Of a stretch of DNA of 64,000 bases, positions 28,649 through 47,043 are shown piece by piece (positions within the stretch are counted from its first letter, which is position 1; the number at the start of each line of letters is the position of its first letter). The stretch spans positions 64,001 to 128,000 of the forward strand of contig JAXHMY010000008.1 of assembly GCA_034520965.1 (NCBI GenBank), given 5' to 3'. The notes beneath the pieces are model-generated. The model did no database searches. It was not told the origin of the DNA and saw only the letters and a list, made by a program, of their open reading frames with translations. This DNA is from Spirochaetia bacterium (GTDB taxonomy: Bacteria; Spirochaetota; Spirochaetia; DSM-16054; Sediminispirochaetaceae). The translations under genes and the position numbers were made by a program.

Positions 28649-30076
28649 ATGAATAATACACAGCGAGAACATTTAAGCAGCATCAATAGTGACTATGAAG
28701 AACTGTATGGATTTAAGGCTTCCTCCGAATACATGGAGTCTGCTACCCGAGGCTTAAGTGAAGATGTGGTCAGGGAAATTTCGAAAATGAAAAACGAACC
28801 GCAATGGATGCTTGATTTCAGGCTCGAAGCTCTGGCGACTTTTTATAGGATGCCCGATCCTCAGTGGATAGATGCTTCCGTTTTTTCTTCAATCAACTAT
28901 GACAACCTTTTTTACTATGCCCGGGCAACGGACAAACAGTTTAACGATTGGGATGACGTCCCTGAGCATATTAAGGAGACCTTCGATAAGCTTGGTGTTC
29001 CCGAAGCTGAAAAGAAATTTTTAGCCGGGGCATCAGCTCAGTTTGAATCAGAAGTGGTCTATCATCACATGCAGGAAGAGCTTGAGAAGCAGGGTGTGAT
29101 TTTCATGGACATCGATTCAGGCCTGCAGCAGCATGAGGAGTTGTTTCGACGCTATTTTGCAAGCCAAGTGCCCATGGACGACAATAAGTTTGCTGCACTT
29201 AACTCGGCCGCATGGTCGGGGGGGAGCTTTATCTATATTCCCCCTGGAGTAAAAGTGGATATTCCTTTACAGGCCTACTTCCGGATTAATGCCGAAAGCA
29301 TGGGCCAGTTTGAGCGGACTTTAATTATTGCCGATAAGGGTGCCTCAGTTCATTACATCGAAGGCTGTACTGCTCCGGTATACTCCAGCGATTCCTTTCA
29401 TACCGGCGTGATCGAATTGTTTGCGATGGAGGGGGCGTCCCTTCGGTACACCACCATCCAAAACTGGTCGAACAATGTGCTGAACTTGGTTACCCAACGG
29501 GCCGTTGCCCATAAAGATGCCAAAGTAGAATGGATGGACGGTAATCTGGGTGCCCGGACCACTATGAAATACCCCGCAGTCTCACTGATAGGGGAAGGGG
29601 CGCGAGGCCGGGTGCTCTCAATCGGCTACGCGAATGATATCCAACGCCAGGATGCGGGGGCTAAAGTAATTCATGCCGCCCCGCATACATCCTCCTCGAT
29701 TACCGCCAAGTCTATTTCCCATAACGGCGGACGCAGCTCCTATCGCGGCCTGGTCAAAGTACTTCCCGGGGCCAGTGATGTAACCTCAAATGTCAATTGT
29801 GACGCTCTGCTGCTTGATGATCGGTCCCGTTCGGATACCTACCCGACCATCGATGTGCAGGAGAACCGGCAGGTGAACGTGGCTCATGAGGCAAGCGTGG
29901 GAAAGATAAGTGACGAAGCCCTGTTTTATCTAATGAGCAGGGGAATTGCCGAAGAAGAGGCCTTGTTTATGATTGTAAATGGCTTTATTGAAGAGTTTGC
30001 GAAGGAGCTCCCGATGGAATATGCGGTAGAACTCAACCGGTTGATTCAACTGGAAATGGAAGGAGCGGTAGGTTGA
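28649..30076 (+). CDS. sufB: Fe-S cluster assembly protein SufB
   Basis: [46 protein letters not shown]. Confidence 0.95.
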
Positions 30077-31311
30077 TGGCAGCAGATACATTACAAGTTA
30101 ATAATATACAAAAGGAAGCGCAGGCACAGATAGCTTCTCTTCCCGCTCCAGGAGCTCCGGATGAAGCCTGGCGCAGGGTTCCCCTGGGACCGATTTCAGC
30201 TTTGCTCCAAAATCAGAGCGCAGCCTCACAGGTAAAGAGCGGAAGGGTTGATATTTATGCCGATAATACCCTTTTATCACCCCTCGATACTTCGGGCGGA
30301 GGAGTAAGCCCTGTAGTCAAGAGATGGCGAGAACTGGAAGCTCTGCGGCAGGAGCACCGGCTGGAGCGGCCGAATGACATTGAGCAGAACCAACTGTTTG
30401 CATACCCTCTTGCATATGCTCAAAGTATCTACCAATTGAAAATTGCTGCCGAGGACTCTACTGAAACTATTCAAATTGATATCCGCCTCAATGCCAATGA
30501 AACTGACGGAGTTTCGACTCCGATTTATTATTTCCCAGTGTTGCTGATTCATGCTGAAAAAAACAGCTCGGCTTCGGTTCAGATCAAGCTTCATTTAGGC
30601 GAAGAAAATCAAACGGCGGTGATGCTGTCCCGTACAGTTTTAATACTTGAAGATGGCGCCTCAGTTGACTATCAGGATGCTGCTGCGGCTACGAATAGAA
30701 TTACTGCCGGCTATCAACTGGAACAGGCGTATCTTGGAAGGGATGCCCAACTGCGGATAGGACGGGAGATCGGCAGTTTTGAAACGGGTATGCACGATGG
30801 TCGCTATGCATTGCTGGGGCGAGGGGCCCGCTTGGAGGAATATACTCTCATGCAAGCGGGAGATATCGGCAGCAGCGATCGCAGTTTTTGTGGTCAAAAG
30901 TCTGTGGTTGAGCAGTATGCCCCCCATACTATGAGTAATGTGGAAACCCGTTCAATTTTAGGAGCAGCAGCCCACGGCATGTTTGTGGGTACCATTAAGA
31001 TTCCTACCGGAGCACCCGGTTCTAGCGGTCATGAGCAGCACCGAAGCTTGCTGCTCAGTCCGCAGAGTCGAATAGAGTCGCTCCCGGAGCTTGAAATAGT
31101 TGAGAATGATGTAAGCTGCAGCCATGGTTCAACGGTAACCGAGCTTGACCCCGAATCCCGCTATTATCTTGAATCGCGGGGTATTAGCCGGGAAGATACT
31201 CGAGTTTTGTTGACCGCTGCATTTACCGATCAGCTTAGATCGCGCATGCCCGGTGCACAGTTCGAACTGAATGAGTTAGCATATGTAGAGGAGGAGAGTA
31301 GCAGTGAGTGA
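30076..31311 (+). CDS. sufD: Fe-S cluster assembly protein SufD (divergent)
   Basis: EAWR N-terminus; PELEI.ENDV.CSHG.TV; YYLESRGI. Confidence 0.85.
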   Translation: MAADTLQVNNIQKEAQAQIASLPAPGAPDEAWRRVPLGPISALLQNQSAASQVKSGRVDIYADNTLLSPLDTSGGGVSPVVKRWRELEALRQEHRLERPNDIEQNQLFAYPLAYAQSIYQLKIAAEDSTETIQIDIRLNANETDGVSTPIYYFPVLLIHAEKNSSASVQIKLHLGEENQTAVMLSRTVLILEDGASVDYQDAAAATNRITAGYQLEQAYLGRDAQLRIGREIGSFETGMHDGRYALLGRGARLEEYTLMQAGDIGSSDRSFCGQKSVVEQYAPHTMSNVETRSILGAAAHGMFVGTIKIPTGAPGSSGHEQHRSLLLSPQSRIESLPELEIVENDVSCSHGSTVTELDPESRYYLESRGISREDTRVLLTAAFTDQLRSRMPGAQFELNELAYVEEESSSE

Positions 31312-31741
31312 TAGTTTATACCGGGATATTTTGCTTGATCATTATAAATCCAAGAAACATAGATTTGAAATTGTAGACCCAACTAGCAAAGAAGAGGGGA
31401 AAAACCCGCTTTGTGGCGACACTATAACCTTGTTCACCAAAATGAACGGGACGCACATTGAAAAGGTAAGTTACGACGGCCACGGCTGTTCTATTTCTAT
31501 GGCCTCCAGCAGTATGCTCTGTGAGGCCCTGGAGGGGCATACTGTGGATGAGGCCTTGGAGAGGATCCAGCAATTTAAGGAGATGCTGCTTACCGATCAT
31601 GAGGTAGAGTTCCCGGATGATATAGCCGACCTAGAGGCGATGTCCGGGGTGAAGCAGTATCCGGTGCGGATAAAATGTGCGTTGTTGGTGTGGAATACTG
31701 CAGAGCAAATGCTCAAGGAGTCACAGCCGGATGTACAGTAA
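31304..31741 (+). CDS. sufU: SUF system sulfur-transfer/scaffold protein SufU
   Basis: LYRD.LLDHY, NPLCGD, GCSISMAS, PVRIKCALL.W. Confidence 0.9.
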   Translation: MSDSLYRDILLDHYKSKKHRFEIVDPTSKEEGKNPLCGDTITLFTKMNGTHIEKVSYDGHGCSISMASSSMLCEALEGHTVDEALERIQQFKEMLLTDHEVEFPDDIADLEAMSGVKQYPVRIKCALLVWNTAEQMLKESQPDVQ

Positions 31742-32039
31742 AGAAGAACTGCTTGTGAAGCTGCGGCCGGTAGAGGACCCTGAAATCGGATTCTCGATCG
31801 TAGATATGGGGCTGATTTATGAGCTCTATCAGGATGAAGAGGAAAGGGTGCATGTAAAGATGACACTTACCACTCCTATGTGTCCTATCGGCCCTTCAAT
31901 CGGCGAGAACGTGAAACAGACGCTCCTATCGGATCCTCATATTCCTGAAGTTGATTTTGAGTGGACCTTTAGCCCCCCTTGGGACCCTAAGACGATGGCA
32001 AATGATGAAGTAAAGTGGGAAATGGGCATTTTCTCCTAA
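31731..32039 (+). CDS. Metal-sulfur cluster assembly factor (DUF59/SufT)
   Basis: VEDPEIG.SIVDMGLIY, MTLTTPMCP, PPW. Confidence 0.9.
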   Translation: MYSKEELLVKLRPVEDPEIGFSIVDMGLIYELYQDEEERVHVKMTLTTPMCPIGPSIGENVKQTLLSDPHIPEVDFEWTFSPPWDPKTMANDEVKWEMGIFS

Positions 32040-32072
32040 GCTTTTCTTAGTCCTCCTTAGTGGTCCAAGCCA

Positions 32073-32100
32073 TTGACAATTCCTCGCATGCCGATACACT
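32073..32100 (+). promoter_or_regulatory. Putative sigma70 promoter of ettA
   Basis: TTGACA-16-TACACT. Confidence 0.5.
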
Positions 32101-32139
32101 ACTACATAAATACAGCAATAAAATAAAGGACACATACAG

Positions 32140-33825
32140 ATGGCAGAAGGCGATAAGAAGGTAATTTACTCCATGATGCGGGTGAGTAAATTGCATGGTA
32201 AGAAGAAGGTTCTCAAGGATATATCTCTCTCCTATTATTACGGGGCAAAAATCGGCGTGCTGGGACTCAACGGTTCCGGTAAGAGCACACTGTTGCGGAT
32301 CATGGCCGGAGTAGATACTCATTATGAGGGCGAAGCGGTGCTCTCTCCTGGTTACTCAGTTGGCTTTTTAGAGCAAGAACCCCATCTGGCGGCCGGGAAA
32401 ACCGTACGAGAGGTGGTTGAAGAGGGTGCTCAGGAGGCTGTGAGTCTACTTGCTGAATACGATCGTATTAATGAGCAGTTTGCAGAACCTATGGAAGCGG
32501 ATGAAATGGAAAAACTCCTCCAACGCCAGGGTGAGGTGCAGGAGAAACTCGATGAGGTAGACGCCTGGAATCTCGACTCGCATCTGCAGCTTGCTATGGA
32601 TGCCCTGCGTTGTCCTCCTGAAGAGCAGGTGGTTGATAATCTATCAGGAGGTGAACGTCGTCGTGTAGCCCTCGTTAGGTTATTGCTGCAGAATCCGGAT
32701 ATCCTGCTGCTGGACGAACCGACCAACCATCTGGATGCAGAGTCGGTGGAATGGCTGGAGCAGCATTTGCAGCAGTATGCAGGGACGGTTATAGCGGTTA
32801 CCCACGATCGTTACTTTCTGGATAATGTAGCCGGGTGGATACTCGAGCTGGATATGGGGGAAGGTATTCCGTATCGCGGAAATTACTCCTCATGGCTGGA
32901 GCAGAAGCGCGGCCGGCTTGAACTGGAGGAGAAGCGGGAAAGCGAGCGGCAGAAAACCCTTAGTCGTGAGTTGGAGTGGATTCGTATGGCCCCCAAGGCG
33001 CGGCAGGCAAAAAGCAAGGCCAGGATTAACTCTTACGAGGATCTTTTAACCCAGAATCAGGAAAAGCGACAGCAGGAGCTACAGATTTTTATTCCACCCG
33101 GTCCCCGTCTGGGAGATGTGGTAATCGAAGCGGACAAGGTGTCAAAGGCTTACGATAATCGGCTGCTGGTCGATGACCTTAGCTTCTCTGTTCCCCCCGC
33201 AGCGATAGTGGGGATTATCGGGCCAAACGGTGCCGGAAAGACTACCCTGTTTCGCATGATTACCGGGAAAGAGAATCCGGATAGGGGTACTTTGAAAATC
33301 GGTGAGACAGTAAAATTAGGGCATGTTGATCAGATGCGTGAAGCCCTTGAACCGGATAAAAGTGTTTGGGAGATGATTTCCGACGGACAGGAGGAAATTC
33401 AGCTTGGCAAGCGAACCGTCAACTCCCGAGGCTATGTGTCCCGCTTTAATTTCCTAGGGGCCGATCAGCAGAAGAAAGTGGGGGTGCTCTCCGGGGGAGA
33501 GCGGAACCGTATCCAAGTGGCTATGATGCTCAAAAGTGGAGCTAACTGTCTGCTGCTGGATGAACCGACCAATGATCTGGATGTAAATACGATGCGTGCC
33601 CTGGAGGACGGGCTTCTGGGGTTTGCCGGCTGTGTTCTGGTTATCTCCCACGACCGCTGGTTTCTAGACCGCATTGCTACTCACATTCTAGCCTTTGAAG
33701 GCGACAGTTCGGTACGTTGGTTTTACGGAAACTACTCCGAATATGAAGAGGATAGGCATCGGCGTCTGGGAATCGAAGCGGACACTCCGCATAGGGTAAA
33801 ATACCGTAAATTAACAAGGGATTAG
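32140..33825 (+). CDS. ettA: Energy-dependent translational throttle protein (ABC-F)
   Basis: GAKIGVLGLNGSGKS, AMDALRCPP, ELEWIR..PKARQAKSKAR, two ABC domains. Confidence 0.95.
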   Translation: MAEGDKKVIYSMMRVSKLHGKKKVLKDISLSYYYGAKIGVLGLNGSGKSTLLRIMAGVDTHYEGEAVLSPGYSVGFLEQEPHLAAGKTVREVVEEGAQEAVSLLAEYDRINEQFAEPMEADEMEKLLQRQGEVQEKLDEVDAWNLDSHLQLAMDALRCPPEEQVVDNLSGGERRRVALVRLLLQNPDILLLDEPTNHLDAESVEWLEQHLQQYAGTVIAVTHDRYFLDNVAGWILELDMGEGIPYRGNYSSWLEQKRGRLELEEKRESERQKTLSRELEWIRMAPKARQAKSKARINSYEDLLTQNQEKRQQELQIFIPPGPRLGDVVIEADKVSKAYDNRLLVDDLSFSVPPAAIVGIIGPNGAGKTTLFRMITGKENPDRGTLKIGETVKLGHVDQMREALEPDKSVWEMISDGQEEIQLGKRTVNSRGYVSRFNFLGADQQKKVGVLSGGERNRIQVAMMLKSGANCLLLDEPTNDLDVNTMRALEDGLLGFAGCVLVISHDRWFLDRIATHILAFEGDSSVRWFYGNYSEYEEDRHRRLGIEADTPHRVKYRKLTRD

Positions 33826-33829
33826 GCTT

Positions 33830-34738
33830 ATGAAAACATTGGCATTCGGCGAAGTACTGTGGGATATCATTAATGGAACAGAGTATATCGGAGGCGCCCC
33901 GTTTAATTTAGCCTCTCATCTGGCACAGATGGGGGCTGACTCGGCTATGGTATCGGCTGTTGGTGATGATGAGCGGGGAGTTCGCGCTCTGCAGAGTGTA
34001 AAAGAGAAGGGAGTCGTGGATAGCTATATTGCCACTCTCCCTGGTGTCCCTACCGGCATCGTAGAGGTGGAACTTGATGCAGCGGGAAAGCCGACGTATG
34101 TGATTCGAGAGGGAAGCGCATGGGATTCGATCGAGCTATCTGAAACTCAGATGAAGGCAATCCGCGTAGAAGACTGGGACATAGTGGCCTTTGGTTCGCT
34201 GGCTCAGCGTACAAAAAACAATCAGGCTATCCTTGAGCAGGTATTGGAGGCTGCGGCTCCCAAAGAGGTTTTTTGTGATGTCAATCTTCGCCTGGACTAC
34301 TACTCTAAGGCGGTTATTTCGCGCTCCCTGAAACACAGTACTATTTTGAAGCTGAATGATGAGGAAGTGCCGGTTATATCAAAACTGCTCTACGGTGAAG
34401 AGCTGTCGGACCGGGATTTTTGCCGGAGGATGACTGAGGACTGGAATATTCATACTACCGCCATTACCCGCGGCAAACAGGGTGCATCTGTGTACAGAGC
34501 GGAAGACTACATCCACGTTCCGGTTGTAGATGTTCCGGTGGTGGATACCGTTGGCGCCGGTGACAGCTTCTCGGCGGCTTTCTTGTTCGGGTTCTTCTTT
34601 ACCCATGATATCGACAAGGCGGCCAATTTGGCTTCTTTGGTAAGCTCGTACGTTACTTCAAGGAGCGGAGCTATACCCCACTATGATGAACCGGTGCAGA
34701 AGGCGATTGAACGGGTCCATCGCGAGGCTATAGAATAG
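33830..34738 (+). CDS. PfkB-family carbohydrate kinase (fructokinase-like)
   Basis: GEVLWD, GGAPFN, DVNLR, LKLNDEE, DTVGAGDSF. Confidence 0.9.
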   Translation: MKTLAFGEVLWDIINGTEYIGGAPFNLASHLAQMGADSAMVSAVGDDERGVRALQSVKEKGVVDSYIATLPGVPTGIVEVELDAAGKPTYVIREGSAWDSIELSETQMKAIRVEDWDIVAFGSLAQRTKNNQAILEQVLEAAAPKEVFCDVNLRLDYYSKAVISRSLKHSTILKLNDEEVPVISKLLYGEELSDRDFCRRMTEDWNIHTTAITRGKQGASVYRAEDYIHVPVVDVPVVDTVGAGDSFSAAFLFGFFFTHDIDKAANLASLVSSYVTSRSGAIPHYDEPVQKAIERVHREAIE

Positions 34739-34761
34739 TACTGTATTCCGTCCGGCAGTTA

Positions 34762-35106
34762 TTAATCAAATATTATAACAGCCGTCATTATCAGAGGGAT
34801 TCGGCCGATGTTGGCGATGCTGTGTGATTCTCCATCTCTGGTAATCACTACATCTCCGGGACCGACCTTTTTGCTACCCTCCGACTCCTCGACTTCCCCA
34901 TCTCCCTCGTGAATTAGGTAGTATTCAGTTTCGCCGTCATGTTGGTGCGGGCCTATACTGGCACCGACTGGAATGTCGATACGAGCCATGAGCCGACCGT
35001 TTTTTATCTGATCTTTATCCACTAAATGGGTGATAGCGATAGTTCCGGAACCTCCTCGCATATTCTCTTTCAGTTCAGTCTGCATTGCATCTCTTTTGTT
35101 GATCAT
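34762..35106 (-). CDS. Cupin domain protein
   Basis: MRGG.G, SIG.HQH..E.E.Y.I..G.G, GESHSI.N. Confidence 0.85.
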   Translation of the reverse strand: MINKRDAMQTELKENMRGGSGTIAITHLVDKDQIKNGRLMARIDIPVGASIGPHQHDGETEYYLIHEGDGEVEESEGSKKVGPGDVVITRDGESHSIANIGRIPLIMTAVIIFD

Positions 35107-35124
35107 CTGCTAGCCTCCATGCGT

Positions 35125-35400
35125 TTATTTTCTTGGTGGAAAATCGTAGTGTCGCTCAAACAACTTTTTTACTTGAGCAGCCACTTTTTCGTCGTCCGGT
35201 CCTTCTACTCTTATTTTTACTTCATCCTTCTGTACAAGGCCAAGCGAAAGCAGCCCCATGACGCTGTTCAAATTGACACTGAAACCATGTGCTTCAGCGC
35301 TGATTTTGCCGGAGTAATCTCTTATCTCCTCAATGATAACTCCCGAAGGACGGACATGAATGCCGGCTTGGTTTTGTACAACAGCGGTTTTTTCTACCAT
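35125..35400 (-). CDS. ptsH: HPr-family phosphocarrier protein
   Basis: NQAGIHVRPS (His15 region), SVMGLLSLG (Ser46 region), EGPDD; start at ATG 35400. Confidence 0.85.
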   Translation of the reverse strand: MVEKTAVVQNQAGIHVRPSGVIIEEIRDYSGKISAEAHGFSVNLNSVMGLLSLGLVQKDEVKIRVEGPDDEKVAAQVKKLFERHYDFPPRK

Positions 35401-35577
35401 GGTGGTATTGTAATGCAAAGAATCTAATATTTGAAGCCGCATAATAAAAATTTATAGTTGAAGAATTACTATTTATTGAGGTAATCTGTGTAACAGAGTT
35501 GTATGGAAAATTTTGTGCTTCAGGGGTTGAATCTTATCTAAGTGATCTTAAACCGGAGTATACTCTGCATATAAACA

Positions 35578-35868
35578 ATGAAAATAGCCGAATACGGCTA
35601 TTCTCATACTAGTAAAAGGAAAAAGGAAATGAACGAATCACTCATACCCGGCCGCTGGTACAGGCTGGAGTTACCATTGGAAAAAATTTTTTATGCCGAA
35701 TACATTGTCGAAAAAAACAATCCCCAGGTTAGTTGGTTCCGTTTTCTTGATGGTTCCCGTAAGGCAACCGGAGATGTTCTTCCTTATGTAACTTCTATCA
35801 TAGAAATTGAGGCTCCCGAGAAAAGCCGTAATTACGATATCCGTGACTATACGGATGTGGAAGAATAA
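35578..35868 (+). CDS. Hypothetical protein (start may be ATG 35629)
   Basis: ORF co-oriented with and 9 nt before the next gene; no motif. Confidence 0.5.
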   Translation: MKIAEYGYSHTSKRKKEMNESLIPGRWYRLELPLEKIFYAEYIVEKNNPQVSWFRFLDGSRKATGDVLPYVTSIIEIEAPEKSRNYDIRDYTDVEE

Positions 35869-35877
35869 GGGGACGGG

Positions 35878-37074
35878 GTGAAGTTGCAGAGGCTGGATAG
35901 GGTGGCACTGTTTGCCGCCTTATCACTTTTTTTGTCGATAATCGAACTTGTCATACCCAAACCAATCCCTTTTTTTAGGCTAGGCCTGGCCAATTTGCCG
36001 TTGTTAATTGCTCTGACTTTTTTTAATCGGCGTGAATTTGTGCTTCTGGTACTTTTAAAGGTCTTTGGGCAGGGGATTGTCTCCGGTACCCTCTTTTCAT
36101 ACGTGTTTTTATTTTCTGCAACCGGAAGTTTTTCCTCCGGTGCGGTTATGCTGCTGCTGCGCAGATGGTATCCAAAGGGAATCTCTCTTGTGGGAATCGG
36201 GGTAGTGGGAGCCTTCGCAAGCAATAGTGCCCAGCTGCTGTTTGCCTCGCTGTATATTTTTGGACGGAGTACCTGGCTGATTGCACCACTATTTTTACTG
36301 ATTGGAACTGTCAGCGGGATGATTCTAGGCGCTACTGCCGGCTATCTATTGCAGCATTCAAGATGGCTGGCGGTTATGCCGGTTGAAGAGTCGCCGGACC
36401 AGCCTTCCCAGCCTCCAAAACATGAAAAACATGCGGAAAAGATGGATGCACCCGTTGTGCGGGTTACACCCATGGTCCGGCTCCTCACCGGTTTGTTGAT
36501 GATTGCTCCTTTTATAATGCAGCCTCAGATTCTCCTCAAGTTTGTCCATATTCTGCTGTTTGGTGTGGCTTCTCTCTACCTGGGAAAGCGTGTGCGAATT
36601 CTTCCCGGAATAATGATAGCTGCCGCAGTAACCGGAGCCCAATTGTTGACTCCTCTAGGCGAGGTGCTTACCTACATCGGCTCCTTCCCGATTACCGCTG
36701 GGGCCCTCCGGCAGGGTGTGCTGCGGGGGCTGAACTTGGTGGGATTGGTATATTTGTCACGGTATGCGGTTTCTTCGGGGCTGCCGATCCCCGGGAAATT
36801 GGGTGCGCTTCTCTACAGGGTGTTTTATTACTTTGAAGAATTGACTGCCTATAGGGTGGTACGGGACAGGAGTACCGGTTTTCGGGGGAATATCAAACAG
36901 GCTCTTATGGGAATAGACGGTTTTTTATTGGAGCTTTCGCTTTCATCAGCAGGAGCAGCTGAAGGCAGAGCGGCAAAGCTGGTTATGCCGGGACTCGGTG
37001 TCCATATAATACTGCCATTGGTGGGTGTAGGGCTCCATTGGATTCTATATGCGGTCGGGTTTGTATATTTATGA
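35878..37074 (+). CDS. Gx transporter family (so-called heptaprenyl diphosphate synthase component I) protein with C-terminal EcfT-like membrane domain
   Basis: LSIIE..IPKP.PF.RLGLAN, SGTLFS, S.VG..V.GA..SN..Q; second hydrophobic domain with ITAGALRQG..RGL.L. Confidence 0.7.
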   Translation: MKLQRLDRVALFAALSLFLSIIELVIPKPIPFFRLGLANLPLLIALTFFNRREFVLLVLLKVFGQGIVSGTLFSYVFLFSATGSFSSGAVMLLLRRWYPKGISLVGIGVVGAFASNSAQLLFASLYIFGRSTWLIAPLFLLIGTVSGMILGATAGYLLQHSRWLAVMPVEESPDQPSQPPKHEKHAEKMDAPVVRVTPMVRLLTGLLMIAPFIMQPQILLKFVHILLFGVASLYLGKRVRILPGIMIAAAVTGAQLLTPLGEVLTYIGSFPITAGALRQGVLRGLNLVGLVYLSRYAVSSGLPIPGKLGALLYRVFYYFEELTAYRVVRDRSTGFRGNIKQALMGIDGFLLELSLSSAGAAEGRAAKLVMPGLGVHIILPLVGVGLHWILYAVGFVYL

Positions 37075-37102
37075 AAAGGAGTATAAAATTTCGGCTGTTG
37101 TA

Positions 37103-37131
37103 TTGACATAGTTGTAGAGTACTGTTAGCGT
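37103..37131 (+). promoter_or_regulatory. sigma70 promoter of the ilv-leu leader
   Basis: TTGACA(37103-08)-17-TAGCGT(37126-31) with extended TG. Confidence 0.65.
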
Positions 37132-37174
37132 TCTTGTAACTATAAACTTTCACTTATTCTGAGGAGAATGCAGT

Positions 37175-37378
37175 ATGCAGAACGCAATAATGAACGTGAT
37201 GACCGCTATTTCAATTTCTATTATCGCCCTCATCATCATTATTATTGTTGCAAGTCTGTCTCTCCTAATTACCAACCTGCTACTAAGCCTATCGGGCATT
37301 ATTATTCTACTAATTAGTGGAGCTCGAGGTGAGTTCCATTGTTCCTGCCGTAGTAATACGGCCCCTGCACACTGCTAA
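37175..37378 (+). CDS. Ile/Leu-rich attenuation leader peptide of the ilv-cim-leu operon
   Basis: SD GAGGAG 8 nt upstream; 15 Ile, 10 Leu and 2 Val in the first 47 codons; 6 of 10 Leu codons are CTA; directly upstream of ilvB. Confidence 0.8.
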   Translation: MQNAIMNVMTAISISIIALIIIIIVASLSLLITNLLLSLSGIIILLISGARGEFHCSCRSNTAPAHC

Positions 37379-37570
37379 ATAGCAGCCCGCAGCGGGAAAA
37401 GCATAGGAACAATGAAGCTACCTCGACTCATCCACCCTGGTTATAGGTATATCTAAAGTATAGATATGCAGGTAACCGGGGACCGGTATATCCTAAAGTC
37501 GAGAGCTGCTGCCGATTGTTCCTCCTTTTCTCACTCCTGCGGGAATGTCTTAAATTGAGAGGAGGAGAGG
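37324..37570 (+). promoter_or_regulatory. Alternative-helix RNA switch ending in an SD-sequestering stem
   Basis: 37324-46 pairs with 37405-26; 37386-427 alternatively pairs with 37498-543; 37522-33 pairs with SD region 37556-67. Confidence 0.7.
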
Positions 37571-39238
37571 ATGAAAGGCGCGAGAATACTGGTTGAAGCA
37601 TTAAAAAAAGAGGGAGTTGATACTCTTTTTTGTTATAACGGCGGGGCCGTTATTTCGATTTTTGATGAGCTTTACACCCACGGTAAAGAGATCAATTTAA
37701 TCCAGCCCCGGCACGAGCAAGGGGGAACCCATGCTGCTGATGGGTACGCCCGTTCAACCGGCAAACCGGGGGTTGTATTAGTAACCTCCGGTCCGGGGGC
37801 TACCAATACCATCACCGGTATTGCTACCGCATATATGGATTCGGTGCCCTTGGTGGTGTTTACCGGGCAGGTGTCTACCGGAATGATAGGGACCGATGCG
37901 TTTCAGGAAGCTGATACGGTGGGCATCACAATGCCCATTACTAAAGCCAACTTTCTGGTAAAGAACGTAGAGGAACTTGCTTCTACGGTGAAGAAGGCCT
38001 TCCATCTGGCTATCACCGGCAGACCGGGTCCGGTGGTTGTGGACATCCCCAAGGATGTTCAGATGGACGAGACCGATTTTTCCTACCCCCTTACTCCCGA
38101 CTTGCCCGGATATCGGCCCAAGGATAGCGGCCATCCTCGCCAAGTGAAAACCCTGAAAAAATACCTTCATGAAGCCCGTAAGCCGGTGGTCATCTCCGGT
38201 GGAGGGGTAAACAGCGCCGGAGCAACCGAGCTGATGAACGAGTTCTGTGATCGCTACGGTGTACCGGTGGTGACAACTCTGCTGGGCCATGGAGTTTCCC
38301 CACAGCATGAAGAGCTCAATTACGGACCAATCGGAATGCACGGTTCTCTGTACGGTAACTATGCCCTGCAAAATTGTGACCTGCTTATGGCATTCGGGAC
38401 CCGCTTCTCCGACCGTATTATGGGGGATCCCGATGTGTTCGCCGAACAGGCTCGAATTGTTCACGTAGATATTGATGCTGCAGAAATCGGAAAGAACATT
38501 TCTGTTGATTTGCCGATAGTGGGGCCGATTTCCGGTGTGTTGGAGGAGCTCAACCGCGAGGAGAGCTACGCTGACTATTCCAAGTGGGTAGAAGAACTCC
38601 GAGCATACCGTAGCGAAAACCCCCTCGAATTTGATCAAAGCGATGTTTTAAAGCCGCAATACCTTATCCAACTTGCACAGAAGTACTTTCCCGAAAATAC
38701 CATAGTAGCCTCCGATGTAGGCCAGAACCAGATGTGGGTGGCTCAGTACTTTCACTTTCATCGCGGCCGTCGTCTGCTTACCTCCGGAGGCCTTGGTACA
38801 ATGGGCTACGGCCTGCCTGCGGCTATTGGTGCTGCAGTTGGGAACCCGGATGCCCAAGTACTGACGGTATCCGGGGATGGGGGCTTCCAAATGAATATGC
38901 AGGAAATGGCTACCGTGAAGCAGTACGGGCTGAAAGTAAAAATGCTGGTTCTGGACAATAGTTGCCTCGGTATGGTGCGCCAGTGGCAGCAGTTGTTATT
39001 TGATAAGCGCTACTCAGGTACATGCATGAATGATAACCCGGATTTCGGCTTGATGGCAAAAGCAATGGGTATTCCTTCATTGAAGCTTGAAAAAGTTTCC
39101 GAGGCCGAGCAGACAATGAAGGCCTTTGCCGAGAGCGAGGGGAGTATGCTGCTGCATGCCGTGATTGAGGGCGAAGAGAACGTGGTTCCGATGGTACCGG
39201 CGGGAAAACCTTTAGATAAAGTAATTCGCAAAATCTAG
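37571..39238 (+). CDS. ilvB: Acetolactate synthase large subunit
   Basis: RHEQG..HAADGYAR, TSGPGATN, AFQEAD, DVGQNQMW, GDGGFQMN, LGMVRQWQ. Confidence 0.97.
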   Translation: MKGARILVEALKKEGVDTLFCYNGGAVISIFDELYTHGKEINLIQPRHEQGGTHAADGYARSTGKPGVVLVTSGPGATNTITGIATAYMDSVPLVVFTGQVSTGMIGTDAFQEADTVGITMPITKANFLVKNVEELASTVKKAFHLAITGRPGPVVVDIPKDVQMDETDFSYPLTPDLPGYRPKDSGHPRQVKTLKKYLHEARKPVVISGGGVNSAGATELMNEFCDRYGVPVVTTLLGHGVSPQHEELNYGPIGMHGSLYGNYALQNCDLLMAFGTRFSDRIMGDPDVFAEQARIVHVDIDAAEIGKNISVDLPIVGPISGVLEELNREESYADYSKWVEELRAYRSENPLEFDQSDVLKPQYLIQLAQKYFPENTIVASDVGQNQMWVAQYFHFHRGRRLLTSGGLGTMGYGLPAAIGAAVGNPDAQVLTVSGDGGFQMNMQEMATVKQYGLKVKMLVLDNSCLGMVRQWQQLLFDKRYSGTCMNDNPDFGLMAKAMGIPSLKLEKVSEAEQTMKAFAESEGSMLLHAVIEGEENVVPMVPAGKPLDKVIRKI

Positions 39239-39249
39239 GAGGAAAAACA

Positions 39250-39767
39250 ATGGGTGAAGATAAAAGTACTTATACAGATCATGTAATTTCAATGCTGGTT
39301 TTTAATCATCCGGGAGTGTTGTCAAAGATTACCAGTTTAATTACACGGCGGGGATTTAACATCGACAGTATTGCCGCCGGGCCGACCAAAGAGAAGGATA
39401 TGTTCCGGCTCACTATTATGGTAAAGGGGGATGATCGGAGTATCGAACAGATCCAGAAGCAGTTATATAAGATTGTGGACACCTTCAAAATTATGACTAT
39501 CCACCCGGCTCGGAAGGTTGAGCGTGAAATCGGCCTGATCAAAGTGAAGGCTCCGATGGAAGAGCGAAACGAGGGCTGCAGATGGTAAAATGTATTCAAA
39601 AGGTTCAGATACCTGACTCAAGTACCAGTCGGTTTGTTGTTGGATAACCAGAGCAGTGATGAGGTCGATTGCTTTATCAGTTTGTTTCCACTGTTAATCA
39701 GATTGTGGAAGTCGCCAGGACAGGAATCGTGGCGATGGATCGTTGGGAGAAAAACGGTGCATCTTGA
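39250..39767 (+). CDS. ilvN: Acetolactate synthase small subunit, several indels in the 3' half (probable consensus errors)
   Basis: [26 protein letters not shown]-terminal [13 protein letters not shown] found in another frame ending TGA 39767. Confidence 0.8.
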
Positions 39768-39810
39768 GGTGCAGTGGGAAGCAATAAAATTAAAATTTAA
39801 GGAGAAAAAA

Positions 39811-40804
<994 letters not shown>

Positions 40805-40814
40805 GGAGATAGAT

Positions 40815-42494
40815 ATGAGCAATCAGGTAAAGGTGTACGATACGACCCTGCGGGACGGCGCTCAGTCGGTGGGGGTTACCTTTCTCTCTGCATGATGAAG
40901 TGCGGTGATGGAAGCCCTTGATGATATGGGGATGCACTATATCGAAGCCGGTTGGCCCGGTTCGAATCCGAAGGATGCGGCTTTTTTTGAGGCCGCCCAG
41001 TCCATACGGCTGCGTAACTCACGCTTAGCTGCTTTTGGTTCAACCCGTATGAAGAATACCAAAGTTGAACAGGACCGCAATCTGGACTTGCTGCTGCGCA
41101 GCAATGTGCCGGTGATTACCATTTTCGGAAAGTCCTGGGATCTGCATGTGCTTGAGGCGTTGGGGACAAGTCCTGAGGAGAACCTGGAGATGATTTACTC
41201 TTCCGTACGTTACTTAAAATCGCGGGTGGATGAGGTAGTGTTCGATGCCGAGCACTACTTCGACGGAGTGAAAGCGAATCCCGAGTACGCCTTTGCCACT
41301 TTGAACGCAGCCGCGGAAGCCGGAGCGGATTGGCTGGTGCTGTGTGATACCAATGGAGGTACTCTCCCGGACGCCTTCCAGCGTGAGACAGAGAAGGTTA
41401 TCGACCGCTACTCTTTGCCGGTCGGCGTTCATGCGCATAACGATTCTGATTCGGCTGTAGCAAACTCACTTTTAGGGGTGGGAGCCGGTGCGCAGATGGT
41501 GCAGGGAACCATTAACGGTTTAGGCGAGCGATGCGGGAACGCAAACTTGTGCAGTGTAGTGCCGAATTTGAGCCTGAAACAGTCCTATTCAACGGTCGGT
41601 GAGGAGAATATCCGCAAACTGCAGAAGGTCTTCTCCACTTCTCGTATCGGAGATGTCGAATACTACCCCGATCGAGCACATGCCCTTTGTGGGACAGCAT
41701 GCTTTCAGCCATAAGGGGAGAATTCGTGTATCAGCGGTACGCAAAAACCCCCTGACCTACGAACACATTGACCCCGAGCTGGTCGGAGACAGTCGTTTTA
41801 CCACTGTCTCAGAGCTCTCGGGAAAGAGTAATATTATTGAAAAGACTAAAAATATGGGTCTTGGTCAGGAGTTGAGCGGTGAGGCAGCCGGCAAAATTGT
41901 GGAAAAGGTAAAAGAACTGGAGTCACAGGGCTATCACTTTGAGGGTGCGGAAGCCTCCTTCGAACTTCTATCGGCCGCTCTGATGGGTTCACTGAAAGAG
42001 TACTTTACCCTGCACGGGTACCGAATTATGATCTGGAACAATGGGGACGGGAATACCTGGTCTGAAGCTACTATAAAAGCCTCTGTTCCGGAGGATGTGT
42101 CCCATCAACAGGGTCACAGTGAAGCTGTTGAACACACCTCTGCCGACGGCAGCGGACCGGTTGAGGCCTCTGGCAGAAGCCGCTGGAAAGGCGCTGGAGA
42201 AAATTTCATCCGCATATTAAGAATACCCGCCTTACCGATTACAAGGTGCGTATTTTGAACGAGGAATCGGGAACCTGCGCACTTACTCGGGTAATCATAA
42301 ATACTTCCGATGAAGAGACCAGCTGGGGAACAGTGGGAGTTTCGGAGAACATAATAGAGGCCTCATGGCAGGCTTTAACCGATTCTCTCATTTACAAATT
42401 GAAAAAAGACGAAGCCAAACGGGCTGCTGACGGCGAAAAAACAGATGCGTCAGTCGATAATGGAAAGGAGCATGTATATGGGACGATATCTTAA
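40815..42494 (+). CDS. cimA: (R)-citramalate synthase, split by about three frameshift zones
   Basis: YDTTLRDGAQ, IEAGWPGSNPKD, FGKSWDLHV, FDAEHYFDG, FEGAEASFELL, WGTVGVSENIIEASWQAL across four frame segments. Confidence 0.85.
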
Positions 42495-44067
42495 AATTTT
42501 TGATACCACATTACGCGATGGTGAACAGTCGCCGGGGGCCTCAATGACCCTCGATCAAAAGGTGGAAATGGCCGAGGCCCTTGAGAGCCTCGGGGTGGAT
42601 GTCATTGAAGCCGGATTTCCGGTTTCCTCCAAGGTTCAGTTCGAGGCGGTACGCCGCGTTGCCGGAACCCTCAAAAAGGCAGCGGTGGTCGGCCTTTCGC
42701 GCTGTGTAAAAAAGGACATTGATATCACCTACGAAGCGGTGAAAGATGCGGTGCATCCGATGCTGCATCTCTTTATCGCCACCAGTCCGCTACACCGGGA
42801 ATTTAAACTAAAAAAGGACCGCAGTCAGGTACTCGAGTCGATTGCAACGCACCTCGATTATGCGCGTCAGTTTTTTAAGCGTATAGAATTTTCACCTGAA
42901 GATGCATCCCGCACCGAAACTGATTTTTTGTTAGAGGTGATTAAAACAGCGATCGCCCACGGGGCAACTACCATCAACATTCCCGATACCGTGGGCTTTT
43001 CCATGCCCGACGAGTTCGGACAGTTAATTGAGAAGCTGGTGAAGGAAGTTCCGGAATTCCAGAGCGGTGCTGTTGATCTTTCAGTGCACTGTCACAACGA
43101 TTTAGGCTTGGCAGCCGCCAACTCTCTTGCTGCGGTAAAGGCCGGTGCAAGCCAGGTTGAAGTAACCTTGAACGGGATCGGTGAACGGGCCGGAAATTGC
43201 GCCTTGGAAGAGCTAGTGATGGGGCTGGAGGTGCGCCGTGACCTCTACAATGTGGATACCCACATACAAAAGGAGTATCTGTATCCAACCGGAAAACTGC
43301 TGCAGAACCTGACCGGGCTTCTGTTCCAACGGAACAAACCTATTTTTGGGGACAACGTGTTTACCCATGAGTCGGGAATACATCAGCATGGGGTCCTCGC
43401 TCACCGGGAAACCTACGAAATTATGAATCCCAATACCATCGGCCGTCACAGTGAAAGCCTGGTAATGGGACGCCATTCGGGAAAGCACGCACTCCAGGAA
43501 AAACTGCGCCAGTACAATATCCGTCTATCCGAGGAGCAGTTCCAGAAGGTGTTTGAACGTTTTGCGGAGATAGCGGACAAGAAAAAAGAGGTCTACGATG
43601 AGGACCTGTTCTCGATTGTCTCCAATGTGCTCGGTGGAACAATCGACGGGTATCGGATGCCCTATTTTCATGTGTACACCGGTAATACCTTGATTCCTTC
43701 GGCGACGATTAAGCTGACCGAGAAAGACGAGGAGTATATCGCCTCCGCCACCGGTGACGGTCCGGTTGATGCGGTGTTCAATGCTATCGATAAGTGTTGT
43801 CACATCAAGACCAGACTTGAAGAGTACATTATTCAAGCAGTTGGTTCCGGTAAAGATGCGCAGGGACAAGTAAAATTGATGCTTGAAATTGAAGATGAGT
43901 TGTTTGCCGGGAAGGCTTCCTCGACGGATATTGTTGAAGCATCGGCTCTAACGTATTTGAATGCAGTGAACCGGTATGTTCTTAAGCGGCTTTCCAATGG
44001 GCATTCAGGGGGAGACGCGCAGGATTCTCAGATGGCTGAAACCACCGGTAAGGGCCGGGCAGAGTGA
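42478..44067 (+). CDS. leuA: 2-isopropylmalate synthase
   Basis: FDTTLRDGEQSPG, HCHNDLGLA, GIGERAGN, HESGIHQHG, GDGPVDA regulatory domain; SD AGGAG. Confidence 0.95.
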   Translation: MGRYLKIFDTTLRDGEQSPGASMTLDQKVEMAEALESLGVDVIEAGFPVSSKVQFEAVRRVAGTLKKAAVVGLSRCVKKDIDITYEAVKDAVHPMLHLFIATSPLHREFKLKKDRSQVLESIATHLDYARQFFKRIEFSPEDASRTETDFLLEVIKTAIAHGATTINIPDTVGFSMPDEFGQLIEKLVKEVPEFQSGAVDLSVHCHNDLGLAAANSLAAVKAGASQVEVTLNGIGERAGNCALEELVMGLEVRRDLYNVDTHIQKEYLYPTGKLLQNLTGLLFQRNKPIFGDNVFTHESGIHQHGVLAHRETYEIMNPNTIGRHSESLVMGRHSGKHALQEKLRQYNIRLSEEQFQKVFERFAEIADKKKEVYDEDLFSIVSNVLGGTIDGYRMPYFHVYTGNTLIPSATIKLTEKDEEYIASATGDGPVDAVFNAIDKCCHIKTRLEEYIIQAVGSGKDAQGQVKLMLEIEDELFAGKASSTDIVEASALTYLNAVNRYVLKRLSNGHSGGDAQDSQMAETTGKGRAE

Positions 44068-44075
44068 GGGAGAAT

Positions 44076-45368
44076 ATGAGCACAGAAGACCAGAAACAGA
44101 CTCTCACCGAAAAGATTTTCAGCGACAAAGCCGGACGAGTTGTGAAGGCCGGCGACTACCTGCTGCTGGATGTTGACGTTGCTTTAGGCAATGATATCAC
44201 GGCGCCGGTAGCAATCAAGGAATTCGAAAAATTCAAAGGCCGCCGGGTATATGATCCGGAGCGGGTCGTGTTTGTAGCCGACCATTTCACACCCAATAAG
44301 GACATCCAGTCGGCGATGCAGGTAAAGATGGTTCGCGATTTTGCCCGGGCCCACGGTATTAAAAACTTTTTTGATGTGGGGAAGATGGGCATCGAACATG
44401 TGCTTTTACCGGAACAGGGTTTGGTGAAGTCGGGGGATCTGGTAGTTGGTGCCGATAGCCACACCTGTACCTACGGCGCTCTGGGAGCATTTTCGACCGG
44501 GGTGGGGTCAACCGACCTGGCGGGGGTGTTTTTTACCGGGAAGGCGTGGTTCAAGGTACCCGAGGCAATCCGGGTAGAGCTAAAAGGGCAGTTTTCACCG
44601 GGAGTATCCGGAAAAGATCTTATTCTGCATCTTATCTCTCTGCTGGGGGTCGACGGGGCTAATTATCAGGCTCTGGAGTTCACCGGGCCGGGAGTTGCGG
44701 CAGTAAGTATGGACTCTCGGTTTACCGTCAGCAATATGGCAATCGAAGCTGGAGGAAAGGCGGGCCTGTTTCCGGTAGATGCCGTTACCCAAGCCTATGA
44801 GGATGCTCGGGGTATAAAGGTTACTCCACGCAGCGCCGATGAGGACGCCGTGTACAGCCGCAGCATAGAAATTGATTTAAGTACTCTAGAACCAACGGTC
44901 GCCCGCCCGTTTCTGCCGGATAATGGCGCGACTATCAGCAGCTTGACTGCAGAAAAGATAAAAATTGACCAGGTGGTCATAGGCAGCTGTACCAACGGCC
45001 GGATCGAAGACCTGCGGGCTGCTGCGGCGGTGTTGGGCGATGAGCCGATAGCCGAAGGCCTGCGCTGCATCATTCTGCCCGGATCGCAGGAGGTGTATCT
45101 GCAGGCCCTGCGGGAGGGATTAACTGAAAAATTCGTAAGTGCCGGCTGTGCATTTTCAACCCCCACCTGTGGTCCCTGTCTGGGCGGACATATGGGTATT
45201 TTGGCTGCGAAGGAGGTGGCGGTCTCTACCACCAACCGTAACTTTGTCGGCCGAATGGGTCATTCCAGCAGTGAAGTCTACCTTGCATCTCCCGTGGTTG
45301 CTGCAGCCACTGCTGTAAAGGGCTATCTGTGTGGCCCGGATGCTGCGGCCCTCGAGAGGCTGACATAG
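44076..45368 (+). CDS. leuC: 3-isopropylmalate dehydratase large subunit
   Basis: DSHTCTYGA, IGSCTNGR, CGPCLGG, STTNRNFVGRMG. Confidence 0.95.
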   Translation: MSTEDQKQTLTEKIFSDKAGRVVKAGDYLLLDVDVALGNDITAPVAIKEFEKFKGRRVYDPERVVFVADHFTPNKDIQSAMQVKMVRDFARAHGIKNFFDVGKMGIEHVLLPEQGLVKSGDLVVGADSHTCTYGALGAFSTGVGSTDLAGVFFTGKAWFKVPEAIRVELKGQFSPGVSGKDLILHLISLLGVDGANYQALEFTGPGVAAVSMDSRFTVSNMAIEAGGKAGLFPVDAVTQAYEDARGIKVTPRSADEDAVYSRSIEIDLSTLEPTVARPFLPDNGATISSLTAEKIKIDQVVIGSCTNGRIEDLRAAAAVLGDEPIAEGLRCIILPGSQEVYLQALREGLTEKFVSAGCAFSTPTCGPCLGGHMGILAAKEVAVSTTNRNFVGRMGHSSSEVYLASPVVAAATAVKGYLCGPDAAALERLT

Positions 45369-45455
45369 AGGCTGACATAAAGTCTGAATGAAGGATGCGC
45401 CGCATTTGAGTTGGAGAGAAGAGAAACGCAATAAACGAAAAGAGTGAGGATATAA

Positions 45456-45974
45456 ATGATACGAGAAGGTAAGGTCTTTAAGTTTGGAGACCACATAAAC
45501 ACCGATGAGATTATTCCGGCCCGTTATCTGGCCACCACCGACCCTGAAGAGCTGGCAAAGAACTGTATGGAGGATGCCAGGCCGGGTTTCGGGCGGCGGG
45601 AGGATGTGTCCGGCAGCATTATGGTGGCCGGCGAGAATTTTGGCTGCGGCTCATCCCGTGAGCATGCACCAATAGCGATAAAGGCTGCCGGAATTCAATG
45701 CGTAGTTGCAAAGAGTTTTGCCAGAATTTTTCTGCGAAACTGCATTAACATTGGGCTTCCGATTGTGGAACTGGATCAGACCGATACAATAGAAGAGGGA
45801 AATTACCTCAAAATAGATTTTAATGCTGGACAGGTATCAAATATTAGCCAGGGTACAGAGTATACTACCAATACTTACCCGGAGTTTCTGCAGCAGATTA
45901 TTCACAGCGGTGGTTGGCTGACCTATGCTACCACTAACCTGGCTCCTAAATGGGTTCTGGAAGGGGAGCGTTGA
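45456..45974 (+). CDS. leuD: 3-isopropylmalate dehydratase small subunit
   Basis: INTDEIIPARYL, NFGCGSSREHAP, SFARIF.RN..NIG. Confidence 0.95.
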   Translation: MIREGKVFKFGDHINTDEIIPARYLATTDPEELAKNCMEDARPGFGRREDVSGSIMVAGENFGCGSSREHAPIAIKAAGIQCVVAKSFARIFLRNCINIGLPIVELDQTDTIEEGNYLKIDFNAGQVSNISQGTEYTTNTYPEFLQQIIHSGGWLTYATTNLAPKWVLEGER

Positions 45975-45975
45975 A

Positions 45976-47043
45976 ATGAAATATAAGATAGCGGTTTTAC
46001 CTGGTGATGGAATCGGGCCTGAGGTGATGGAGGCTGCCCAAAGGGTACTTGCAGCGGTGAGCAAAAAGTTTAACCTCCAGTTTGAGTTCAGCTACGGACT
46101 TATCGGAGGGGCGGCTCTGGATGCGGAAGACACCCCCCTTCCGGAGGAAACCCTTAAACTGTGCCGCAGTGCCGACGCAGTCTTGCTGGGCAGTGTCGGG
46201 GGCCCCAAATGGGATACCCTCCCGCCGGAAAAGCGACCCGAACGGGGCGGTTTATTAGCCCTGCGGAAACAGCTGAATCTGTTTGCTAATTTACGGCCGG
46301 TGCGGGTGTATCCGTCCATTTCTCACCTCTCTCCTCTCAACAGCCGCCGTCTTGAAAACGGGGTGGATCTGTTGACGGTCCGGGAACTTTCCGGCGGTAT
46401 CTATTTTGGTGAGCCGAAAGAAAAGGGCGATACGAGTGGACTGGATACTATGTACTACGACAAGCAGACTATCAGTCGAGTAGCCAGGCTTGCCTTTGAG
46501 GCTGCCGGTCGCCGGCGGAATAAGCTTACTTCGGTTGATAAGGCAAACGTGTTGTACAGTTCGCTTTTATGGCGGGAGACTGTCGAGGAAATAGCTCCCG
46601 AGTATCCGGAGGTAGAACTGGATCATATGTATGTCGATAACGCGGCTATGCAGATGATCGTCAACCCGGGGCAGTTTGATGTAATTCTCACGGGAAACCT
46701 GTTTGGGGATATCCTGTCCGATGAGTCCGCCGCCCTGCCGGGTTCGCTGGGGGTCTTGCCCTCGGCCTCGCTGGGTGATTCGGTACATCTGTTTGAACCG
46801 GCCGGCGGATCGGCACCGGACCTTGCCGGACTGGACAAGGCTAATCCGGTGGCACAAATATTATCGGCGGCCATGATGTGTGAGTACGGATTGGATTTAC
46901 CCGATGCGGCTGCAGCTATCCGAGAAGCGGTTGAGCAGAGTTTTACTGAAGGAATCTGTACTGCCGATTTACTCTCCGGTTCCGAAAGCCCGGCGGCCGG
47001 TACCACCCAGGTTGCTCGGGCGATTGCAGGGTATATCAAATAG
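45976..47043 (+). CDS. leuB: 3-isopropylmalate dehydrogenase
   Basis: LPGDGIGPEV, RPERGGLL.LRK, DKANVL, NLFGDILSDE, EPAGGSAPDL. Confidence 0.95.
   Translation: MKYKIAVLPGDGIGPEVMEAAQRVLAAVSKKFNLQFEFSYGLIGGAALDAEDTPLPEETLKLCRSADAVLLGSVGGPKWDTLPPEKRPERGGLLALRKQLNLFANLRPVRVYPSISHLSPLNSRRLENGVDLLTVRELSGGIYFGEPKEKGDTSGLDTMYYDKQTISRVARLAFEAAGRRRNKLTSVDKANVLYSSLLWRETVEEIAPEYPEVELDHMYVDNAAMQMIVNPGQFDVILTGNLFGDILSDESAALPGSLGVLPSASLGDSVHLFEPAGGSAPDLAGLDKANPVAQILSAAMMCEYGLDLPDAAAAIREAVEQSFTEGICTADLLSGSESPAAGTTQVARAIAGYIK

Follow-up and report, generated by a model that had tools for sequence, protein, structure and literature searches.

Ahead of ilvB in a spirochaete of the family Sediminispirochaetaceae there is a 67-codon upstream open reading frame (uORF), which is probably a leader peptide that senses branched-chain amino acids (BCAA). 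With little more than even confidence, we further regard it as the ribosome-mediated attenuator of the operon ilvBNC-cimA-leuACDB, acting by termination of transcription as modelled below. The stretch of DNA that was analysed (hereafter the window) comprises 64,000 nt, namely positions 64,001 to 128,000 of the forward strand of contig JAXHMY010000008.1 (assembly GCA_034520965.1, Spirochaetia bacterium). The leader is newly recognised, restricted to its lineage, unusually long and dense in control codons, and it would belong to the known leader-peptide attenuators; literature searches turned up no account of this particular Sediminispirochaeta leader. All coordinates refer to the plus strand of the window, and the evidence is computational throughout. 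Here 'the genus' denotes the window genome's own genus (10 genomes, including the window genome) and 'the family' denotes Sediminispirochaetaceae, the sole family of its order, with 17 species genomes in four genera. An ilvB match was present in 16 of these 17 genomes, which belong to three genera (the 10 genomes of the genus and three genomes in each of two sister genera), and all uORF counts for the family are given over these 16.

The uORF (37175-37378) begins 8 nt behind the Shine-Dalgarno (SD) sequence GAGGAG (37161-37166), encodes the peptide MQNAIMNVMTAISISIIALIIIIIVASLSLLITNLLLSLSGIIILLISGARGEFHCSCRSNTAPAHC and ends with a TAA stop codon (37376-37378), which is separated by 192 nt from the ATG of ilvB (37571). 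Codons 1-47 comprise 15 Ile, 10 Leu and 2 Val codons and contain the runs IIIIIV, LLL and IIILLI. The control-codon region, codons 12-47 (37208-37315), holds 14 Ile and 10 Leu codons, and six of the 10 Leu codons of the uORF are CTA. The genes that follow the leader were identified with Pfam and NCBIfam as ilvB, ilvN, ilvC, cimA, leuA, leuC, leuD and leuB, in this order. A preliminary description of this DNA had reported a promoter, a strong SD sequence and a 67-codon uORF 192 nt before ilvB, and all of these agree with the sequence and its translation. Its count of 27 Ile, Leu or Val codons among the first 47, its three runs and its six CTA codons were obtained again on recounting, and its ilv-cim-leu operon is borne out by the family assignments.

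The composition of the uORF exceeds chance. In the 1,653 long open reading frames (ORFs) of the window genome that served as the base for codon usage, CTA is the rarest Leu codon and makes up 6.2% of all Leu codons, a genome-wide frequency that had been proposed as a check in the preliminary description; given this background, the binomial probability of six CTA among 10 Leu codons is ~1e-5. When all 22,335 ORFs of at least 40 amino acids (aa) in the six frames of the window genome were scanned with a 47-aa sliding segment, only the uORF reached at least 25 Ile plus Leu residues, and it was one of four ORFs with at least 15 Ile residues. Six other Ile-rich ORFs, including one with 18 Ile residues, had neither an SD sequence nor a BCAA gene downstream (two Ile-rich ORFs of 206-207 aa on contig C9 lay outside this six-ORF comparison). 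Across the 10 genomes of the genus the uORF carries 14-18 Ile, 8-11 Leu (4-7 of them encoded by CTA) and 0-3 Val residues; genome-wide, Ile and Val are equally frequent (6.7% each).

The frame is open over 54-67 codons in all 16 ilvB-bearing genomes of the family, and in each of them it sits ahead of ilvB in a single copy. Leader DNA was matched in all nine other genomes of the genus. The two sister genera gave no match to the leader at the DNA level; all six of their genomes (3 + 3) have a uORF of 54-58 codons that follows an SD sequence, is located 116-215 nt before ilvB and includes runs such as III, IIII and LLL(L). The preliminary description had suggested examining the ilvB upstream regions of relatives for conserved Ile/Leu enrichment and CTA bias: the Ile/Leu runs do persist in the sister genera in the absence of a DNA match, and the CTA bias is kept in all 10 members of the genus, with 4-7 CTA codons each. 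A profile built from the 16 peptides was compared with 201 genomes of the class and yielded confident matches in the family alone, i.e., in the window genome and nine of 10 others, one per genome and each directly upstream of ilvB; two marginal matches (E ~3e-3) lay outside the family. Among 5.8 billion proteins, restricted to lengths of 29-118 aa, 18 matching clusters were found; those that bear a name are all labelled 'hypothetical protein', and one stems from Sediminispirochaeta smaragdinae (54 aa). Homologues away from BCAA genes had been named beforehand as the observation that would speak against a leader, and none was found away from ilvB in the 201 class genomes or in the 29-118-aa proteins among the 5.8 billion. 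Searches of Pfam-A and NCBIfam returned no family for the 67-aa product, and Rfam 15, run on positions 36500-38000 of both strands at E ≤10, gave four matches at chance level to unrelated families. Taken together, the linkage to ilvB, the composition, the mutually exclusive helices described below and the lack of a homologue elsewhere support the reading as a BCAA-sensing leader.

The pattern of variation differs along the uORF. In an alignment of seven close genomes, the variable columns of the Ile/Leu region number 9, 8 and 16 (of 36) at codon positions 1, 2 and 3, and this excess at third positions marks the region as translated. The corresponding numbers for the last 20 codons, which consist of arm A and two hairpins of the RNA structure, are 3, 6 and 5 (of 20), and a hairpin within the coding region is preserved by a compensatory double change that alters amino acids. 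From this pattern we conclude that selection acts on the 5' two-thirds of the uORF as codons and on its 3' third at the level of the RNA. The length differences seen in the uORF in the genus alignment are multiples of three. Across the family only two columns are invariant, both of them Ile, and in one sister genus the Ile triplets are interrupted by E, N, P, H, K and R. Judged by these sequence comparisons, the uORF is conserved and lineage-specific and is likely to be translated.

The RNA from 37140 to 37600 folds more stably than shuffled copies (z = -7.1). For a 66-pair structure placed on the genus alignment, 94.9% of the cells are paired, compared with 33-52% when the partners are slid, and changes on both sides occur in 13 pairs, compared with 3.7±1.6 in shuffled alignments (at least 13 in 0 of 500 shuffles). 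Three segments form the core of this structure. Arm A (37320-37345), the predicted 5' arm of an antiterminator, lies inside the uORF (codons 49-57) and starts 5 nt past the last Ile codon. Segment B (37405-37429, AGGAACAAUGAAGCUACCUCGACUC) can pair with either A or D. Segment D (37497-37523), made up of AGUCGAG, AGCU and AUUGUUCCU, complements B and is predicted to form the 3' arm of a terminator; 2 nt past the closing stem of B:D follows the U-tract UUUUCUC (37526-37532). Two inner hairpins within A:B (37347-37395) show compensatory changes (helices 5 and 6), and the stop codon of the uORF is located at the loop of the second one, a position that is kept in the genus alignment. Hairpin C (37435-37481), within B:D, has 15 pairs, six of which are changed on both sides (helix 8). 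The A:B duplex (-26 to -36 kcal/mol, z -4.1 to -7.4) and the B:D duplex (-18 to -27 kcal/mol, z -2.7 to -6.4) were found in 10 of 10 genus genomes, and in all 10 the two helices compete with each other in silico. The register of B:D moves between species, with 6-10 closing pairs persisting, and A:B is kept in all three genera, in one of them with different letters (UUUCGUCGUUC with GAACGACGAAA). These complementarities, their conservation and the U-tract are seen directly in the sequences.

From these features we infer a switch that depends on stalling, its timing and termination. When Ile-tRNA or Leu-tRNA is scarce, a ribosome would stall at one of the ~25 control codons, all of which lie 5' of arm A; A would then remain paired with B as an antiterminator, RNA polymerase would read through and the operon would be on. 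When Ile and Leu are plentiful, the ribosome would traverse arm A toward the stop codon, which lies within the A:B loop; B, released in this way, would pair with D, and the branched helix with the UUUUCUC tract would end transcription before ilvB, so that the operon would be off. A leader that is not translated would form the antiterminator and permit read-through. Every stall upstream of A would be equivalent, and control codons can therefore spread along a long peptide. Premature termination is, on the modelling, the most likely output step.

The proposed switch was modelled on transcripts cut at the U-tract, for which the mean probability of the B:D closing stem was determined by position of the ribosome. 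With a ribosome at the Ile/Leu codons this probability was 0.00-0.28 (≤0.07 in eight of the 10 genus genomes), without a ribosome it was 0-0.48, and with a ribosome past the control codons it rose to 0.42-0.99 in nine of the 10. When the stretch from B to D is folded by itself, its closing stem ends 0-2 nt ahead of a run of U4-5, again in nine of 10 genus genomes. Five salt-lake metatranscriptome runs yielded assembled contigs that are 85-99% similar to the window; these cover the leader in all five runs and continue into ilvB in two of them (X16, 37295-38220; X19, 37171-38208). Leader RNA contigs of two different studies break off at 37515 and 37516 and show no loose end there, and the DNA runs X1, X2 and X9 continue past these positions; the coincidence of the two RNA ends is a weak hint of termination. 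Leader-only contigs in X17, X18 and X20 have greater depth figures than the ilvB contigs, but parts of a gene are not rankable by contig depth; neither depth nor uncovered parts were used as evidence.

Several points weigh against termination by this switch. The folding is equilibrium modelling with an assumed ribosome footprint of 28 nt. Two genomes of the genus depart from the pattern: G006, the sole exception for the closing stem, is without a U4 run, and G005, the leader of which is cut at its 5' end by a contig end, gave a closing-stem probability of 0.02 and no switch. A consensus scan listed no canonical intrinsic terminator in the leader. Such terminators are not in excess in the surrounding window positions 30001-50000 (17, compared with 19.7±4.7 expected), and the missing one in the leader therefore says little. 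The interior of the proposed terminator is branched and 85 nt long, and its closing stem is AU-rich. In the sister genera, where the uORF and A:B are retained and the linkers are different, no comparable stem with a U-tract was found; the output step is therefore not generalisable beyond the genus. In some genomes (G009, G008) the modelled arm A can return to its pairing with B as the ribosome arrives at the final codons, so that termination would depend on timing or on several ribosomes following one another. As for the RNA data, they consist of contigs assembled from relatives, in which true ends and levels are not resolvable. In the free full-length leader of the window genome the ilvB SD is strongly sequestered, with an opening energy of 12.6 kcal/mol, and it stays closed while a ribosome occupies the control codons; an on-state with a sequestered SD needs the extra assumption that a very strong SD tolerates the pairing or that translation of the uORF re-opens it. 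Finally, the CTA enrichment is real, while the tRNA that reads CTA may or may not be scarce.

The sequestered ilvB SD invites a reading as purely translational control, in which D and the U-tract (37515-37532) hide the ilvB ribosome-binding site, it depends on where the ribosome stands whether B captures D and exposes the site, and no termination takes place. In the window genome the SD is fully paired with the linker, and its opening energy falls from 12.6 to 6-7 kcal/mol when a ribosome occupies arm A; the anti-SD of the linker is the main SD partner in seven of nine genus genomes. The leader without a canonical terminator would fit such control, as would the pairing of UCUCUCCU (37259-37266) with the ilvB SD proposed by RNAalifold, which resembles the actinobacterial LEU element (PMC1262725). 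The polarity, however, is wrong, since the SD would open only after ribosomes have passed the Ile/Leu codons, i.e., when the amino acids are plentiful. With a ribosome stalled at codons 1-44, opening of the SD costs 11-14 kcal/mol, and with one at codons 45-47 the cost climbs to 15-17 kcal/mol. Moreover, the SD partner is not conserved, the SD being unpaired in G013 and G010 and not modulated in G014, and the conserved U4-5 run after the closing stem would be left unexplained. We consider control by translation alone improbable. The same rank is given to a scheme that retains the sensor and the A:B switch and replaces the output by Rho-dependent termination or polarity through a C/U-rich, G-poor linker, which would be a site for Rho to load and would be masked or uncovered by the alternative helices. 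A gene for Rho is present in the genome (TIGR00767 at 713 bits, which exceeds the cut-off), the linkers before ilvB read as pyrimidine-rich and G-poor in all three genera, and both the sister genera without stem and U-tract and the unremarkable number of canonical terminators around the locus agree with a Rho-type output. Against this scheme, rut sites are not recognisable with the tools used, and a closing stem followed by U4-5, as present in nine of 10 genus genomes, is what an intrinsic terminator needs. (A paper on termination in Borrelia burgdorferi, PMC10319736, is said to cover both intrinsic and Rho-dependent termination.)

The uORF might also encode a small membrane peptide, hydrophobic and functional, that simply shares the transcript of the operon, the RNA behind it being an unrelated riboswitch or protein-binding site. 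Some 40 of its residues are very hydrophobic and would be called a transmembrane segment, public records annotate it as a hypothetical protein, and selection acts on the amino-acid identity of its hydrophobic part. Ordinary selection on a hydrophobic helix would let Ile and Val replace each other freely, whereas the uORF has 14-18 Ile and 0-3 Val residues despite the equal frequency of the two in the genome. Charged, polar and proline residues between the Ile triplets of one sister genus, the mere two invariant columns of the family (Ile in both cases), the C-terminal third without coding-type variation, the absence of a matching Pfam, NCBIfam or Rfam family and the failure to find the peptide apart from ilvB in the genomes and proteins searched all speak against a membrane function, which we regard as very unlikely. 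The general frequency of short ORFs is all that would favour a chance open frame in an AT-rich spacer; this is refuted by conservation, the frame, its SD and its Ile/Leu content being kept in 16 of 16 genomes with indels in multiples of three and with a composition unique among the 22,335 ORFs, and its probability is negligible.

Attenuation by termination may be joined by a translational layer, because in read-through RNA of the window genome the pyrimidine stretch 37521-37532, to which the U-tract belongs, is able to pair with the ilvB SD. The ilvB ribosome-binding site GAGAGGAGGAGAGG with its ATG occupies 37557-37573 (SD 37557-37570). A combined scheme would be a default-on attenuator of three segments, built for sensitivity in that a single hungry codon among the ~25 for Ile or Leu, distributed along a peptide as long as a transmembrane segment, would suffice to hold ribosomes back from the antiterminator arm. 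Its parts would be re-used on the full-length mRNA: a ribosome finishing the uORF would shift D from the ilvB ribosome-binding site to B and thereby license translation of ilvB, so that transcriptional and translational control are coupled. We offer this scheme tentatively, as a rather unlikely possibility. A simple erm-type model, in which a stall at the control codons opens the ilvB SD, was ruled out for the window genome by folding and was also unsupported in G014, G013 and G015, where no consistent effect was obtained. A common partner of the ilvB SD was not found across the family: it is the linker, the uORF (G001, G016 and G015) or none, depending on the genome.

The enteric leaders leuL, ilvL (of ilvGMEDA) and ivbL (of ilvBN) likewise consist of an SD-led uORF rich in codons for the end product, which precedes the first biosynthetic gene and has mutually exclusive helices behind it. 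Enteric BCAA leaders have ~14-32 codons, and leuL uses the rare CUA codon. In contrast, the uORF of Sediminispirochaetaceae has 54-67 codons, with ~25 control codons spread over 36 codons, and shares no sequence, Rfam or Pfam match with the enteric leaders. It further differs from them in that its stop codon lies inside the antiterminator loop, in that the predicted default in the absence of translation is read-through, and in that its predicted terminator is branched and is closed by an AU-rich stem.

Several published systems offer further comparisons. The ilv-leu attenuator of Staphylococcus aureus encodes a 26-residue peptide with III followed by LL, at which stalling leads to read-through, and it has a canonical hairpin with a poly-U tract 52 nt after the stop codon as well as genetic support (PMC5794164). 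Like the window leader, it is an Ile/Leu-rich leader before an ilv-leu operon with a terminator/antiterminator model; the window leader is 2.5 times longer, has a non-canonical predicted terminator and is described here by computation. In the paper on the Corynebacterium ilvB-II uORF, the Leptospira ilvB motif is re-read as a predicted Val-rich uORF (PMC10272879); this motif has seven representatives, contains Val runs and is located ~70 nt upstream of ilvB (PMC8632094, PMC10272879). Both resemble the window leader as conserved BCAA-rich uORFs in structured RNA before ilvB. Leptospira belongs to the same phylum and to a different class. The remark in the preliminary description that no characterised example is known in the phylum has to be qualified by this Leptospira precedent, and it holds in so far as the precedent is a predicted one (PMC10272879). 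In the actinobacterial LEU element before leuA, a uORF is combined with a compact structured domain, and a pyrimidine-rich stretch of Leu codons pairs with the leuA SD (PMC1262725). The RNAalifold pairing of UCUCUCCU with the ilvB SD is similar to this arrangement; unlike in the LEU element, the predicted SD partner in the window genome is the local linker and not the Leu codons, and masking of the Leu codons leaves the ilvB SD closed in the folding.

The promoter of the leader (37103-37131) was identified by reading the sequence and consists of a -35 element TTGACA (37103-37108), a 17-nt spacer and an extended -10 element TGn-TAGCGT (37123-37131), with a predicted transcription start at ~37138. 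TTGACA and TGnTAnnnT are kept in nine of nine genus sequences that reach the promoter, and the GGAG core of the uORF SD is present in all nine genus sequences covering its site. A scan for consensus promoters did not list the TTGACA/TGn-TAGCGT promoter, because its -10 hexamer agrees with the consensus at only three of six positions. Four of the five RNA runs have no cover upstream of ~37160, and the RNA contigs begin at 37160-37184 with adapter letters in front; no transcription start site is claimed from them.

Regarding the downstream genes, the ilvB match was TIGR00118 (730 bits), cimA was matched by TIGR00977 in two fragments (369.5 + 196.3 bits), and a match to NF002086 (726 bits, NCBIfam) was also among the genes of the operon. 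Between positions 39250 and 42258 several frames are broken: the ilvN ORF ends at 112 aa, a pair of overlapping frames makes up ilvC (39634-40368 and 40193-40804) and another pair cimA (40905-41714 and 41599-42258), and the break in ilvC resembles a single extra base within a G/C run. These frame breaks are probably indel errors of the assembly and not signs of pseudogenes. A terminator-like hairpin, ATAACGGCGGGGCCGTTAT, with a T-rich tail is present at 37635-37663, within the 5' end of the ilvB coding sequence; it overlaps the conserved codons for N-G-G-A-V and is probably incidental.

A further hairpin, P0 (37184-37248), lies in the 5' part of the leader; it has 14 pairs, 97-100% of its cells are paired with one-sided changes only, and its 3' arm is the Ile-codon run AUCAUCAUUAUUAUU. 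The motif UCUCUCCU of the uORF (codons 29-31) pairs in single-sequence folds with the uORF's own SD (37164-37169), and RNAalifold pairs it with positions 37561-37567 of the ilvB SD; such pairing could reflect self-limiting initiation of the uORF, or the CU-rich Leu/Ser codons may pair incidentally. A near-direct repeat, GGTATATCTAAAGT (37446-37459) and GGTATATCCTAAAGT (37485-37499), is located in and after hairpin C and may be a protein-binding site. Base pairing may also contribute to the preference for CTA, e.g., that of CUCCUA or of the hairpin UCUACUAAUUAGUGGA. ARAGORN detected 37 tRNA genes in the assembly, which is 86% complete, among them one tRNA-Leu(UAG). Neither tRNA-Leu(CAG) nor tRNA-Ile(GAU) was found in this assembly, in which either gene may be unassembled; CTG is the commonest Leu codon of the window genome despite the missing tRNA-Leu(CAG).

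Outside the family, the scan covered 20 regions upstream of ilvB, drawn from 12 further families of the class. One of them (G056) has an Ile/Leu-rich uORF near ilvB, three more have uORFs at least 500 nt from ilvB, and 16 have none by the criteria used; the five genomes of that other family whose IlvB is most similar showed no such uORF near ilvB. In G056 the uORF is SD-led, has 38 codons (MNRNTVLHGQRQRFFPSLALLSIIIILLLIPFRGAREA) and stops at a distance of 77 nt from ilvB; with it, a second spirochaete family may possess an independent Ile/Leu leader. Among the scanned IlvB-similar loci outside the class, two passed a similar uORF filter. In an Anaerolineae metagenome-assembled genome (L080), a 39-codon uORF containing VAIIIVVLGVLLRV is situated 253 nt upstream of ilvB and is a candidate ILV leader in Chloroflexota.

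The form of leader present in Sediminispirochaetaceae is unusually long, is labelled as a hypothetical protein by annotators and is missing from the libraries of RNA families. The 18 clusters now recorded as 'hypothetical protein' merit relabelling as ilv-leu leader peptides. If the model holds, leaders can bear dozens of control codons when all stalls upstream of the antiterminator arm count alike, and the cultured member Sediminispirochaeta smaragdinae, with its 54-aa homologue, makes this model directly testable.

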